DNA from: a virus
Lineage: Duplodnaviria; Heunggongvirae; Uroviricota; Caudoviricetes
Reading direction: 5' to 3' (one strand)
Length of the DNA: 10,738 nucleotides
Virus record (IMG/VR): IMGVR_UViG_2693429518_000023
In this document: piece after piece, positions 1 to 10,738 of the stretch
Layout of the letters: each line of letters starts with the position of its first letter
Position numbering within the stretch: position 1 is the stretch's first letter
The notes under the pieces: generated by a model
Seen by the model: the letters and a program-made list of their open reading frames with translations, nothing else
Database searches by the model: none
Told to the model about the DNA's origin: nothing
Position numbers and translations under genes: made by a program

Positions 1-801
1 TTATCCCAATGGCATCACAGCGTAGTGTAAGCGGTAACGCCAGACGCATTCCGGTTTTTCCCTGGGTGATATGCAAGTGTTCGTTCCACACATCTGAAAA
101 ACGCATGTGGCAAATGTCATCACGGCGCTGACCAGTAACAATCGCAAGAAGCATTGCGTTACGGATAAAGTGTTTTTCAGGCGTTGCATTGTAAATTTTT
201 TCCAGTCTTCCATGGTGAGCCTGGCTCTGGTTACTTTAGGGATCGGTTTACGGGTAGTCTCCGGAGGATTCCATCCAGGAGGAACTTCCCCTGCATGCTG
301 TGCTTCTTTATAAATATCAACCCATAATCCACGATTTACTCTCGCTGTGCTGACCATGTCTTTATCCAGCCACTCATCCAGTATTAATGCAAAGTCTCTT
401 ACTTCCAGTTCTTTCAATGGGTGGTTTCCCAGACGGGAAACCAGGTATGCAGCCATTCGAGTTTTTTCTTTGTGAGTTGTAGCTGCAATATCTCCATTTT
501 TCAGTCGCGTGTCCTGTATTTTCAGATATCGATCAACCCATGCCTTTAATCTGATACCCCGACGTTTTGTTGCTGACGGACTTTCATCAATTTTGCGCAT
601 GAAATATTCAGCTTCTGCTGCAGCTATCCGCTGATTGGCTGTGGAAGCGATTTTTTCTGCCTTACCTTTGTCTGTTCCGAGTCCGTGAAATTTTCCAGTC
701 ACAGGATTTTTATACTGGTAGTAAACTCTGCCAGTTCTGCGATCAAACTTTTCGTAAAGACCGGCTACGTCAGTGCTGTTTTTTCGTGGCCTCGGTGACA
801 T
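1..801 (-). pseudogene. int: Lambda-type tyrosine integrase, N-terminal part, disrupted by a -1 frameshift in an A6 tract; remainder continues off-window in another frame
   Basis: ATG at 801. The translation resembles the lambda Int N-terminal/core-binding region up to ...ARLTMEDWKK. After the A6 run (minus strand, plus coords 196-201) the Int-like sequence continues in a different frame (KIYNATPEKHFIRNAMLLAIVTGQRRDDICHMRFSD..., matching lambda ...LKIYQAAE...LAVVTGQRVGDLCEMKWSD) and leaves the window at position 1. The start-codon frame instead gives an unrelated tail and stops at 1-3. Confidence 0.65.
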
Positions 802-1039
802 GAGTTAAAATCTCCTTCAGTGCATCATCATCGCCAGTATGAATTTCCGGCGCAATTCCCGTTTCACCAGGCCCAACAAATACTGCTCGGCGATCTATCA
901 GCCAACGCCCACGAATTTTTTGTGGTCTTGGAACGATGTATCCTAGTTTTCCGTATTTCACCAGGGTAGTGTTTGTTATTGGGAGACTGAACCGTTTTGG
1001 TTTCCACTCGTCGAGCGTTATCAGGTACTGTTCGCTCAT
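770..1039 (-). CDS. xis: Excisionase (Xis-like), 89 aa
   Basis: Small basic protein MSEQYLITLDEWKPKRF... resembling lambda Xis (MYLTLQEWNARQRR...). GGAG about 9 nt upstream of ATG 1039. Its 3' end overlaps the int start by 32 nt, as in lambda. The track start at 1048 is a GTG alternative. Confidence 0.75.
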   Translation of the reverse strand: MSEQYLITLDEWKPKRFSLPITNTTLVKYGKLGYIVPRPQKIRGRWLIDRRAVFVGPGETGIAPEIHTGDDDALKEILTHVTEATKKQH

Positions 1040-1100
1040 GGCTATCACTCCGGAACGCGCCAGTTGCAGAATATCAACGACAACTGGCGACGGTTGAACA

Positions 1101-2549
1101 TTAAAAATCAGCCTGACTCGGGATCAGTTTTTGCCAGATAACTGAAACGTATTTTGCCTGGTAACGGGCGTCATCAAGTGCATTATGGCGCTCACCTTCG
1201 AATGGAATAGCCGTTCTGGCATCGAAGTCTATGGCTTTCCCCAGCTCAACGATTGTGCGTACATCGCGATCGTTGTAGTAACGCCACGGGCAGGGGATCC
1301 CCTGCCGTTCGTATGAACGGCGCAAAATCGTGTTGTCGAAGTTGGCTCCATTTCCCCAGACCTGAACAAAAAATTCACCGGAGTTTTCGTCGATAAATTC
1401 CCGCAATTGTAACAGTGCATCATCTAACGGGATTTCATCGGTCATAATGGCAGATTGCGCTTCGCGTGATTGCTTAAGCCACCATTTAATGGTGTCCCGA
1501 TCAATGACTCCGCCAGCAGTTTCCAGATCGATAGTCTTACTAAATTCCGGTCCCATATCTCCGGTTTGCGGATCGAAAAATATTGCACCTATTGAGATGA
1601 TCGGGGCATCAGGATTTTTTCCCATGGTTTCAAGGTCGATCATTAGATGGTCACACGTCCTGCTGGTGGATGTGATTTCTTGATGACCGTTCACCTTAAT
1701 TGAGTGATCTGCCGTCTCGCCAGTTTCATTATCGCTATCGTGATGCTGATTGCCGCCAGTGTTCTCCTTGTGTGGATGTTCAGCGCCTTCCATTTTCTCC
1801 GGATCATCTTCCTGAACTTCAACCTGATACTCTTCATCGAATGTTTCCTGGTATGTTGCGTCGCCCATCACTGCGCCACAATCAGGGCAGTTGCCGCCGC
1901 CGGTCTGACCGCAGGCGGTGCAGACTTTTTCCACTTCCTGTTGCGCCACTGGTTCAGGCTGTTTCGTTTCTGGCTCGTTTTGTAACGCATTTGGGCTGTT
2001 TTGTTCCGCTTTCTGGTCGTTCTGTTCCGTTTCTTGCTGGTTCTGGTTTACAGAATCGCGGGTCTGGATCCCCTTAACCCATTTCGGATCATTCGGGTCG
2101 CTAATCCCTGCAACAAATTCTCCGCGAGAGGCAGCAAGCAACTTATCGGCGTCAGGCTGGCTGATATTGGCTGCCTGCATAATTTTGTTTACTTCGTCAG
2201 CGGTAACTTTTACCGGCTCTGGTTGTGCGGTCGTGTCAGATGCACCAGTATTTTGTTGTGAACCTGAGTATGTACTGTTTTTGCGGGCGAAATATTCTTC
2301 TTTCGTGATTTCAGTAGCCCCGGCAGCCAGCGCCTTATCCAGACCAGAAAGTTTGTTTGCGCGACCGTATTTTTCGCCATCCTTGTCGGTGAAGAGGAAG
2401 TAGAACGGCCCCTCACGCTCTACAGATGCTTCGACTTCCACTTTGCATTCGGTTTTTTCGTTGTCCGGAATCGCCGTTTCCACTGCATCAGTTTCTGGTA
2501 CTGGCGACGAGAGAGTATCAGTTGCGCTCTGATTTCTTCCTTCACACAA
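1101..2549 (-). CDS. Phage exonuclease: C-terminal DEDDh (DnaQ-like) 3'-5' exonuclease domain fused to an N-terminal domain, a Q/E/N-rich acidic linker and a CxxC...CxxC motif
   Basis: C-terminal motifs DLETMG (Exo I), WGNGANFD (Exo II) and HNALDDA (Exo III, H-x4-D). Mid-region [16 protein letters not shown]. Start uncertain: the track start is TTG at 2549 with no clear SD, and there is no in-frame ATG until far downstream. Confidence 0.8.
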
Positions 2550-2559
2550 AATTCACTTT

Positions 2560-2617
2560 AAAAAGGGCGGCAGAGCAGTCACGGAGTAAAACTGATACCG
2601 CCAAACGTCACCAGAAA
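2560..2617 (-). ncRNA. dicF: DicF-like small RNA with 3' intrinsic terminator
   Basis: Minus-strand sequence UUUCUGGUGACGUUUGGCGGUAUCAGUUUUACUCCGUGACUGCUCUGCCGCCC followed by U5 matches my recollection of E. coli DicF (Qin prophage). It lies directly downstream of a 72-aa gene, as ydfC-dicF does in Qin. Ends are approximate; identity is from memory, not a search. Confidence 0.55.
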
Positions 2618-2958
2618 ATTGATAACAGAGGGCGTTGCAGCGGGGTTGTCACTTAAGCGTATGGTCAACCTGACAACCCGGTGTCCTCAACGGGGGAAGG
2701 AATAACCCCTCCATACTTACCGCCGCGCCATTTCGCGGATTGCCACAACCGGAAGCGCACGGTCGACGAAAATTTAACGACAGGCTATCTATGAACCAGC
2801 TACCTCGCCGTGCGCTTTCGCGTTATGGTCTGACTTTTCAGGGAAATATCCTTTCAGTAAACTGTCAGTGCCGTATGCTCACCCGTGTCCGGCGCACGCA
2901 CTCCACCTCACCCGTGGAGAACTCCTTAATTACCAACCTTAGCTTCGTTGGTTAGCTA

Positions 2959-9580: not shown

Positions 9581-9736
9581 ATGAAGCAGCAAAAGGCGAT
9601 GTTAATCGCCCTGATCGTCATCTGTTTAACCGTCATAGTGACGGCACTGGTAACGAGGAAAGACCTCTGCGAGGTACGAATCCGAACCGGCCAGACGGAG
9701 GTCGCTGTCTTCACAGCTTACGAACCTGAGGAGTAA
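9581..9736 (+). CDS. hokD: Hok/Gef-family type I toxin, 51 aa
   Basis: MKQQKAMLIALIVICLTVIVTALVTRKDLCEVRIRTGQTEVAVFTAYEPEE matches my recollection of HokD (RelF). AGGAG RBS upstream of ATG 9581. Confidence 0.9.
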   Translation: MKQQKAMLIALIVICLTVIVTALVTRKDLCEVRIRTGQTEVAVFTAYEPEE

Positions 9737-9805
9737 GAGACCCGGCGAGGGAGAAATCCCTCGCCACCTCTGATGAATCAGGCATCCTCAACGCACCCGC
9801 ACTTA

Positions 9806-9831
9806 ACCCGCTTCGGCGGGTTTTGTTTTTT
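9806..9831 (+). terminator. Rho-independent terminator of the hok mRNA
   Basis: CCCGC-UUCG-GCGGG hairpin followed by UUUUGUUUUUU. A 9-bp GGCGAGGGA-GAAA-UCCCUCGCC stem-loop precedes it at 9744-9765. Confidence 0.7.
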
Positions 9832-9903
9832 CCTGGCATTCTGGTTTACAATTCGCACGCCAGCCTGAACAACTGGCACCTGCTGCGCCAGCAGAGACAA
9901 CCG

Positions 9904-10182
9904 ATGGCGCACGATACCAAATTATACAATTCTGATGATTCTGCCGTCTTTGCCAGCAGGCGCGGACGGTGTTTTCACGCATTCAAATCTGACTGGTATC
10001 AGCACGACCCCTGCACCGAAGAACAGGCTGAATGGCTGATTCAGTGTTACCGCAGGCGCGGATGCGAGGTTAAAAAAGCCCTTAGCCTCGACTACCGTCA
10101 CTGGATAATCTCCGTCAGGCTCCCTTACTCCGAACGGCCACCGCGTCCGTCCCGCACATTCCAGCAACGGATCTGGAGGTAA
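9904..10182 (+). CDS. Hypothetical protein, 92 aa from ATG 9904 (Rem-like by position between hok and the DUF968 gene)
   Basis: ORF in the frame of track ORF 9823..10182, but that start lies inside the hok terminator. ATG 9904 has only a weak SD. Contains several Cys/His. Function not recognisable. Confidence 0.5.
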   Translation: MAHDTKLYNSDDSAVFASRRGRCFHAFKSDWYQHDPCTEEQAEWLIQCYRRRGCEVKKALSLDYRHWIISVRLPYSERPPRPSRTFQQRIWR

Positions 10183-10183
10183 T

Positions 10184-10738
10184 GTGCGGGTATTACTTCG
10201 ACCTGTTCTGGTACCGGAACTCGGTCTGGTTATCGTTAAGCCAGGCCGTGAATCAATGTCAGCATTCCATAACGGCAGAATACTGGTGGAGCCGGAACCA
10301 AAAAGCATGCGAGCTCTGCCGTCCGGGGTTGTACCTGCCGTTCACCAGCCGCTGGCGGAAGATAAATCACTACTGCCATTTTTCAGCGATGAGCGGGTGA
10401 TCCGTGCTGCGGGTGGCGCTGGTGCACTGTCTGACTGGTTATTACGTCACGTGAAATCCTGCCAGTGGCTACACGGTGATTATCATCACAGCGAAACCGT
10501 CATTCACCGTTACGGTACCGGCGCGATGGTGTTGTGCTGGCACTGCGACAACCAGCTGCGGGAGCAGACATCTGATTCACTGGATCAACTTGCTCAACAG
10601 AATCTGGCCGCCTGGATGATTGACATCATCCGTCACGCAATGAATGGCGCACAGGAGCGTGAATTATCTCTGGCTGAATTATCCTGGTGGGCGGTCCGCA
10701 ATCAGGTGGCGGACGCGCTACCGGAAGCGGTATTACGT
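10184..10738 (+). CDS. DUF968-family (YdfU-like) protein, N-terminal 185 codons; continues beyond the window
   Basis: Open frame from GTG 10184 to the window end with no stop. GGAGG upstream. Cys/His-rich region ...HVKSCQWLHGDYHHSETVIHRYGTGAMVLCWHCDNQL... Not in the ORF track because it has no stop in the window. Confidence 0.65.
   Translation, partial: MRVLLRPVLVPELGLVIVKPGRESMSAFHNGRILVEPEPKSMRALPSGVVPAVHQPLAEDKSLLPFFSDERVIRAAGGAGALSDWLLRHVKSCQWLHGDYHHSETVIHRYGTGAMVLCWHCDNQLREQTSDSLDQLAQQNLAAWMIDIIRHAMNGAQERELSLAELSWWAVRNQVADALPEAVLR

Follow-up and report, generated by a model that had tools for sequence, protein, structure and literature searches.

A probable CP-933P/Sp12-family prophage arm beside potC with nested loss-of-function lesions and intact toxin modules

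Identity of the element and its disabling lesions

When core genes of a prophage are broken and its toxin genes are not, it has to be asked whether the host has kept the toxins or whether they are ordinary cargo that has not yet decayed. This question is raised by a stretch of 10,738 nucleotides of Caudoviricetes DNA (IMG/VR record IMGVR_UViG_2693429518_000023), which was analyzed at full length and is called the window (w in coordinates) throughout. The initial annotation had interpreted it as a domesticated prophage, in which host selection keeps toxic or addictive modules (ParE2, Hok, the DicF small RNA (sRNA), YdaS/YdaT) while lytic functions were lost. We consider it likely that the window is the early arm, from int to ydfU, of a CP-933P/Sp12-family lambdoid prophage beside potC, which is decaying via recent nested loss-of-function mutations. 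With similar confidence, the host lineage can be named as E. coli and as close kin of the O55:H7 strain DEC5E. As seen from an open reading frame (ORF) listing, Pfam, Rfam and annotated relatives, the gene content is that of a standard lambdoid early region. The type of element is known, and immunity switch, toxin-antitoxin (TA) system and non-excisability have already been published for its family.

A draft E. coli contig (L010, GCA_001284785.1) matched the full window with 100% identity, and here potD and potC lie directly left of the integrase gene (potC-int'-xis-exo'). The potC prophage of DEC5E differed from w1-8501 by one single nucleotide polymorphism (SNP) and a 19-bp insertion/deletion only and was identical over w9996-10738; the stretch in between is absent from DEC5E. 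The potC prophage of fS25a shared 99.6-99.9% identity with the window, and in this copy int, exonuclease and dicB are intact and are followed by terminase, portal, capsid and lysis genes. There were about 11 single-base differences between window and fS25a. Four of them are G->T changes (2874, 5586, 5883, 7750), several beside G runs, and these represent real lineage changes rather than errors, because DEC5E has them too. The Sp12/CP-933P-type prophage of O157:H7 was 98-99% identical to the window from the exonuclease rightwards.

Four disabling lesions were found within 10.7 kb, each in at least two independent assemblies. The left end of the window (1..801, minus strand) holds the first 267 codons of a lambda-type tyrosine integrase gene (Arm-DNA-bind_1, E 1e-21), the 3' end of which lies beyond the window. 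Compared with the intact allele of fS25a, which encodes 372 amino acids (aa), a T7 run is shortened to T6 at w196, and this missing base causes a -1 frameshift. In L010, two ORFs stand in place of the gene, one of 266 aa with the Arm-binding part and one of 121 aa with the catalytic part. Thus, the frameshift keeps the Arm-binding and catalytic domains of a functional integrase out of one common frame. The DnaC/IstB-type helicase loader gene (6559..7299, plus strand) is also a pseudogene. Its codon 65 was changed from CAG to TAG (6751-6753; Q65 amber), which is the sole difference from the O157 allele in 741 nt. The AAA+/IstB domain is located downstream of the stop, so that the uninterrupted helicase-binding N-terminus plus AAA+ of a functional loader is not encoded. 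Since the amber codon replaces a Gln codon, a glnV (supE)-type suppressor would give exactly the wild-type protein.

The other two lesions had been missed in the initial annotation. A deletion of 1651 bp relative to fS25a and O157 was localized from the junction sequences to w2544|2545 (2544..2545). Lost with it were dicB, a DUF1482/ydfD-like gene and ~340 codons at the start of the exonuclease gene, and no microhomology of note was found at the junction. What is left of the 823-aa 'exonuclease' gene is a 3' remnant (1101..2544, minus strand), which keeps the DEDDh Rv2179c-like domain and has lost the start codon together with the ~340 N-terminal codons. PGAP calls this remnant a pseudogene in the sister genome DEC5E and flags the same pseudogenes there as we found in the window. 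The fourth lesion is a 19-bp deletion at w4822 in the control region between paaR2 and ydaS (described below).

When we searched for these alleles in other genomes, they turned out to be rare. The loader amber was present in three of 529 genomes (fS25a, DEC5B, DEC5E), the integrase frameshift in one of 1513 (DEC5E) and the 1651-bp junction in one of 3489 complete genomes matching either side (again DEC5E). The 19-bp deletion occurred in none of the 591 complete genomes carrying the region and in all six draft contigs covering the site, and because of this recurrence it represents a heritable sub-lineage allele. The shared alleles nest cleanly. Accordingly ordered, decay would have begun with the Q65 amber in the DnaC-type loader (fS25a, DEC5B, DEC5E, window). 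The -1 frameshift of the integrase gene and the deletion of 1651 bp would have followed (DEC5E, window), and the most recent changes would be the deletion of 19 bp, one SNP and the loss of 33 bp in frame from the DUF551 gene (window clade only).

Decay was also seen outside this series. DEC5E independently lost the end of the DUF977 gene, the DUF551 gene, hok and part of a 92-aa ORF via a deletion associated with IS3, and in its prophage the large terminase gene is interrupted by an insertion sequence and the tail-tip gene by a stop. At the potC site of O157:H7 (PV15-279, L017), only int-xis-exo' is left, fused to tail genes and the nleL/espN effector genes. Taken together, this looks like ordinary, continuing decay. 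With the integrase catalytic domain out of frame the element would be unable to excise, and it would have to do without a helicase loader of its own. In the window sub-lineage, rightward early transcription and translation of the Cro-like YdaS are probably crippled as well, which would leave the switch PaaR2-on and repressed. The view that this is a defective or cryptic prophage is supported by the four lesions, by the damage in DEC5E and by experiments on Sp12 of strain Sakai, which has a disrupted integrase and showed no circularization, replication or packaging (PMC2669165).

Could the lesions be sequencing or assembly artefacts, such as homopolymer miscounts or collapsed repeats? The frameshift does sit in a 7-base homopolymer, and the 19-bp and 33-bp deletions sit between short direct repeats. 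However, every allele recurs independently: the frameshift and the 1651-bp deletion in DEC5E, L010 and L011, the amber in fS25a, DEC5B, DEC5E and seven draft contigs, and the 19-bp deletion in six draft contigs. We therefore regard this explanation as extremely improbable. For the integrase and the loader, the two lesions on which the initial annotation was built, this recurrence means that they are real; that both might prove to be sequencing errors had been named there as a refutation. A second alternative is that the element is still mobilizable, with host DnaC and co-resident lambdoid prophages complementing its defects so that it is excised, replicated and transferred. Several defective O157 prophages are indeed excised, packaged and transferred through prophage interactions (PMC2669165), the O initiator and xis are intact in the window, and the late genes annotated in the examined region of fS25a are intact too. 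Nevertheless, among the relatives studied, the closest one that has a broken integrase is Sp12, and it showed no circularization, replication or packaging in the experiments cited above; the deletion of promoter and leader acts in cis and is beyond complementation. Moreover, an intact integrase of this type was not demonstrated in the same genome, and the DEC5E copy has the interrupted terminase gene and the tail-tip stop. Mobilization of the element thus appears very unlikely.

Several points weigh against reading the window as a decaying prophage arm. The view of the prophage in its own genome stops in ydfU, where the contig ends. The missing loader function might be supplied by host DnaC or by a co-resident prophage. 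A lone amber in 741 nt marks a young lesion, with which weak selection on other genes is compatible. Finally, the expression and excision state of this strain was read from its sequence alone, and the effect of the 19-bp deletion on promoter PR and on ydaS translation was deduced in the same way.

Toxin modules: ordinary cargo or host selection

All three named toxic modules are intact, as the initial annotation had stated. The parE2 toxin gene (3901..4179, minus strand; ParE_toxin E 2e-16; PDB 5cw7 E 4e-59) and the paaA2 antitoxin gene (4181..4372, minus strand; PaaA2 E 1e-19) encode proteins that are 100% identical to the O157 copies. The DicF sRNA gene with its terminator (2565..2617, minus strand) was found by Rfam model RF00039 with 76.7 bits (gathering score 48) and matches K-12 dicF in 53/53 positions. 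In the dicBF operon, dicB follows directly downstream of DicF; this arrangement was not found here, and there was no DicB match in the window. The last DicF bases and the 3' flank (w2545-2570, 26 nt) are 100% identical to a piece of Rac DNA (L005 7391-7416) that overlaps kilS, an sRNA gene annotated at 7406-7503, at its 3' end, which hints at a terminator module common to DicF and KilS.

On the right arm, the window carries a complete hok/sok-type locus (9411..9832, plus strand) consisting of leader, hokD (9581-9736), 3' element (~9789-9799) and terminator (~9806-9832). HokD (PF01848, E 1e-23) is intact and 100% identical to the K-12 protein. A 5' element, GGGUGCUUGA, is complementary to the 3' element UCAACGCACCC, and a terminator hairpin can be read from the letters, so that the Hok/Gef ORF, leader, complementary 3' element and terminator of a type I system are present at the level of the locus, with the Sok transcript being predicted. 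Rfam model RF01794 (sok) matched the conserved leader at 9411-9586 with 113.5 bits (gathering score 59). This match lies on the strand of the hok mRNA leader rather than antisense to it and ends at the hok ATG; what it indicates is the locus, not the Sok RNA itself. When we searched the window permissively with Rfam for further RNAs, only a sub-threshold isrK-like match was obtained (9745-9826, plus strand; 27.7 bits vs. a gathering score of 50, E 0.009), which overlaps the hok 3' untranslated region and the terminator.

Is this retention a signature of selection by the host? In favor of domestication, the modules are intact while integrase and loader are broken, and the deletion of 1651 bp reaches no closer to the DicF terminator than 20 nt. 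Furthermore, paaR2-paaA2-parE2 stabilizes plasmids via post-segregational killing, and its authors proposed that it stabilizes the immunity region (PMC8630535). However, Escherichia phage Evi (LR597642), an infectious temperate coliphage from infant faeces, carries paaR2-paaA2-parE2, ydaS-ydaT, ydfC, the DicF region, hokD, the 92-aa ORF and ydfU at 86-100% aa identity, and most of the module proteins match at 98-100% (ParE2 100%, PaaA2 98%, PaaR2 98%, YdaS 99%, YdaT 86%, HokD 100%). Evi differs from the window in being a functional phage with another initiator module and with Kil in place of dicB; a DnaC-type loader homologue was not detected in it, and none of the lesions of the window is present. 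Because an infectious phage carries them, the modules are to be regarded as normal cargo of active lambdoid phages.

Toxic genes were lost as well as kept by the element, since dicB, which encodes a cell-division inhibitor, and the ydfD-like gene, whose K-12 counterpart is annotated as a lysis protein, fell in the 1651-bp deletion; hok was deleted in DEC5E, and the whole interior disappeared at the O157 potC site. The non-toxic neighbors (xis, ydfC, O, DUF1627, DUF977, DUF551, ydfU) are equally intact. To this comes the short time scale. Relatives with intact alleles are 0-0.3% diverged, and at this distance intact genes are the default expectation. The intact genes differ from their closest relatives by 0-2 substitutions each, at which a comparison of synonymous and nonsynonymous changes lacks the power to detect selection, and because of this closeness there was no time for neutral decay that would give a selection signal. 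Finally, we placed three point-like lesions and one 1651-bp deletion randomly on a reconstructed 12.4-kb ancestor. Here, all four lesions missed the four named modules with P = 0.29, and random lesions thus spare the modules 29% of the time, which is not beyond chance.

With Evi carrying the same cargo, with toxic genes lost, with this probability and with the low divergence, host-level selection for the toxic modules appears unlikely. The statement that two core genes were inactivated and toxic modules retained holds for the integrase and loader lesions and for the intact modules; it does not hold insofar as two further lesions had been missed and dicB and ydfD were lost. The initial annotation thus describes a defective prophage correctly, but over-interprets its evolution. 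If the window is instead a recently decaying prophage arm, parE2/paaA2, hok/sok and DicF would be intact as standard cargo that had too little time to decay, and the published addictive behavior of paaR2-paaA2-parE2 may contribute to their retention. Selfish stabilization, in which paaR2-paaA2-parE2 shields the immunity region from replacement, is plausible and has already been proposed (PMC8630535).

The immunity region and its shortened control region

The immunity region is of the CP-933P type, with a leftward repressor-PaaA2-ParE2 operon and a divergent ydaS-ydaT pair with an operator for YdaT. The repressor gene paaR2 (4393..4764, minus strand; PDB 7nkv E 5e-40) encodes the CI analogue; it is leaderless, starts with MQKKE and is intact (PMC8630535), and the protein differs from the O157 copy in one residue. 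Structures have been solved for the ParE2/PaaA2 complex of O157 (PDB 5cw7) and for the N-terminal domain of PaaR2 (PDB 7nkv). Biochemical as well as structural work has been published on the immunity switch, the TA system and YdaT. Pfam assigned no family to the repressor. The initial annotation had called it racR-like, and this label was rejected: a tblastn search of the window with K-12 RacR gave no match at E<0.01, and the gene is paaR2. Downstream of the operon, a leftward PL933P-like promoter with operator-like repeats (TTGACT-16-TAAACT; 3783..3830, minus strand) was recognized from its sequence, with an ACTAAAC motif at 3823 (PMC8630535).

On the opposite strand, the ORFs of ydaS (4843..5145; PF15943), the Cro analogue, and ydaT (5142..5567; PF06254; PDB 8bt1 E 7e-93), the CII analogue, are intact, and both proteins match their Pfam families above the cut-offs. 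The YdaT operator OM (TTGATTCATGAAAATCAA) is present at 5135-5152 as a perfect TTGATTN6AATCAA site at the ydaS/ydaT junction (PMC9986795). As to the YdaS/YdaT pair that had been named beside the toxic modules as reportedly toxic, the ORFs are intact, but the designation as a toxic pair is not supported for this element. The authors of PMC8630535 regarded YdaS as a Cro and YdaT as a CII analogue and concluded that the two form no toxin-antitoxin system; for YdaT no toxicity was seen, and growth defects occurred solely on prolonged overexpression of YdaS or PaaR2 (PMC8630535). The reports of toxicity concern Rac proteins that are 31-40% identical.

In CP-933P, the intergenic region separating both transcription units measures 97 bp and contains the divergent promoters PRM (leaderless paaR2) and PR (ydaS-ydaT) and four equally spaced inverted repeats (IRs); PaaR2 and YdaS both bind there in competition, which leads to bistability (PMC8630535). 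Bistable expression and post-segregational killing were demonstrated for the O157 allele only (PMC8630535). In the window, this control region (4765..4842) comprises 78 bp, whereas DEC5E, fS25a and O157 have the wild-type form of 97 bp with four IRs and PR933P (TTGACT/TAAACT). The 19-bp deletion merges two AAACACTAAAC repeats located 19 bp apart, so that the left half of IR3 and the right half of IR4 are fused; of the units, IR1-IR3 remain and IR4 is lost. Through this deletion the -10 element of PR is altered from TAAACT to TAAACC. The ydaS ATG now follows the altered -10 element at a distance of only 9 nt, and most of the ydaS leader is gone. When scanned for consensus promoters, DEC5E yielded TTGACT-18-TAAACT, and the window yielded nothing at the corresponding position. 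The fragment used in the published PR reporter has TAAACTCGCA at its end (PMC8630535), and because of this the transcription start is expected within the 19 bp that were deleted.

PR output and YdaS translation are thus probably strongly reduced by the 19-bp deletion. The 78-bp region would mimic the published ydaS-null state, in which every cell is PaaR2-on (PMC8630535). One may go further and consider the deletion a naturally arisen cis-acting 'lock', by which a bistable switch becomes monostable, with permanent repression and permanent expression of the TA operon. This idea is possible but rather doubtful.

Remaining genes, mosaic origin and significance

The excisionase gene xis (770..1039, minus strand) is intact and identical to WP_000003742.1 of fS25a and DEC5E. 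Between DicF and the PL-type promoter lies an intact ydfC homologue (2959..3177, minus strand), which shares 98.6% aa identity with K-12 YdfC. It is followed by a small zinc-ribbon ORF of the ECs_2282 family (66 aa; 3270..3470, plus strand), with a 118-aa ORF running across it on the minus strand (3249-3605). PGAP picks the plus-strand ORF ('ECs_2282 family zinc-binding protein'), phage records pick the minus-strand ORF, which is co-directional with PL, and one gene caller took both; both ORFs lie downstream of the PL-type promoter. The non-coding stretch just downstream of PL (w3622-3784) shares 87% identity with Rac DNA that lies upstream of ydaG (L005 8466-8620), and a 28-nt piece of it matches Qin too. 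It may be a conserved PL leader or a nutL-type element common to otherwise different immunity regions.

Right of ydaT, the window encodes an intact O-like replication initiator with an HTH_36 domain (5590..6552, plus strand), in which an iteron search gave only one weak 13-nt repeat pair. The loader pseudogene is followed by open DUF1627 (7325-8095), DUF977 (8111-8506) and DUF551 (8563-9114) genes, all on the plus strand. The 33-bp in-frame deletion near w8888 in the DUF551 gene (~8879-8888; compared with fS25a and O157) lies between 10-bp direct repeats, and every draft contig carrying it also has the 19-bp deletion. A 34-aa ORF on the plus strand is listed between the DUF551 gene and the hok/sok locus. 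Beyond hok/sok, a 92-aa ORF (9904..10182, plus strand) had been labeled rem-like. No homologue of K-12 Rem was found in the window by tblastn, and the ORF aligns with an unannotated Qin stretch between rem and ydfU. The last gene is a ydfU-like DUF968 gene (10184..10738, plus strand), which is open to the window end over its first 185 codons, shares 84% aa identity with K-12 YdfU and encodes 351 aa in L012. At its other end, the DEC5E potC prophage (L007, DEC5E 3236000-3279000) runs into espJ-tccP beside yodB/zinT, which are remote from potC on the K-12 map, and this suggests a chromosomal inversion between two prophages.

Among named prophages, the cryptic CP-933P of EDL933 and Sp12 of Sakai are close relatives of the element. 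Gene order is alike from the exonuclease to ydfU, and ParE2, PaaA2, YdaS, YdaT and O are 100% identical, with the single exchange in PaaR2 mentioned above. They also share the PL promoter, the YdaT operator OM, the DnaC-type loader and a broken integrase. In contrast, the O157 prophages differ in integrase and attachment site (near ynfA rather than potC), have an intact loader where the window has the amber, retain dicB and DUF1482, and carry the 97-bp control region with four IR units instead of 78 bp, three units and the altered PR -10.

The initial annotation had also described the layout as a mosaic of a Rac-like core and Qin-like arms. The arms are confirmed for the Qin (Kim) prophage of K-12: the ydfC-DicF segment shares 97.9% nt identity and hokD 98%. 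However, Qin has the immunity genes dicA/dicC, relBE and rem, and it still carries dicB and ydfD; homologues of DicA, DicC, RelB, RelE and Rem were not found in the window. Qin homology begins only 14 nt upstream of the hokD ATG (w9567), and because of this late start the sok/leader region of the window (9411-9580) has no counterpart upstream of Qin hokD. The core shares with the Rac prophage of K-12 (racR-ydaS-ydaT-ydaU-ydaV-ydaW) the layout of repressor, divergent Cro- and CII-like genes, initiator, DnaC-like loader and DUF1627 gene, and the best matches are YdaV (loader, 79%) and YdaW (58%). Apart from this, the two differ. A RacR homologue was not detected here, and the Rac repressor is not followed by a TA operon; identity is 40% for YdaS (over 58 aa) and 31% for YdaT, and the initiators have nothing in common but the last 19 aa. 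The Rac-like core is thus reduced to synteny and distant family resemblance.

Beyond annotation, these data carry little weight, and the natural 78-bp operator variant is the sole mildly new item. They do hold a caution for the interpretation of cryptic prophages, in that intact toxin modules beside broken core genes are no evidence of domestication where infectious phages carry the same modules. With the nested lesions over fS25a, DEC5B/DEC5E and the window clade, the early decay of a prophage can be followed as a clean and datable series. For the bistable PaaR2/YdaS switch, the 78-bp variant offers an existing allele that can be tested in the published reporters. If the lock is real and was selected, this prophage would have been silenced by operator surgery and not by gene loss.

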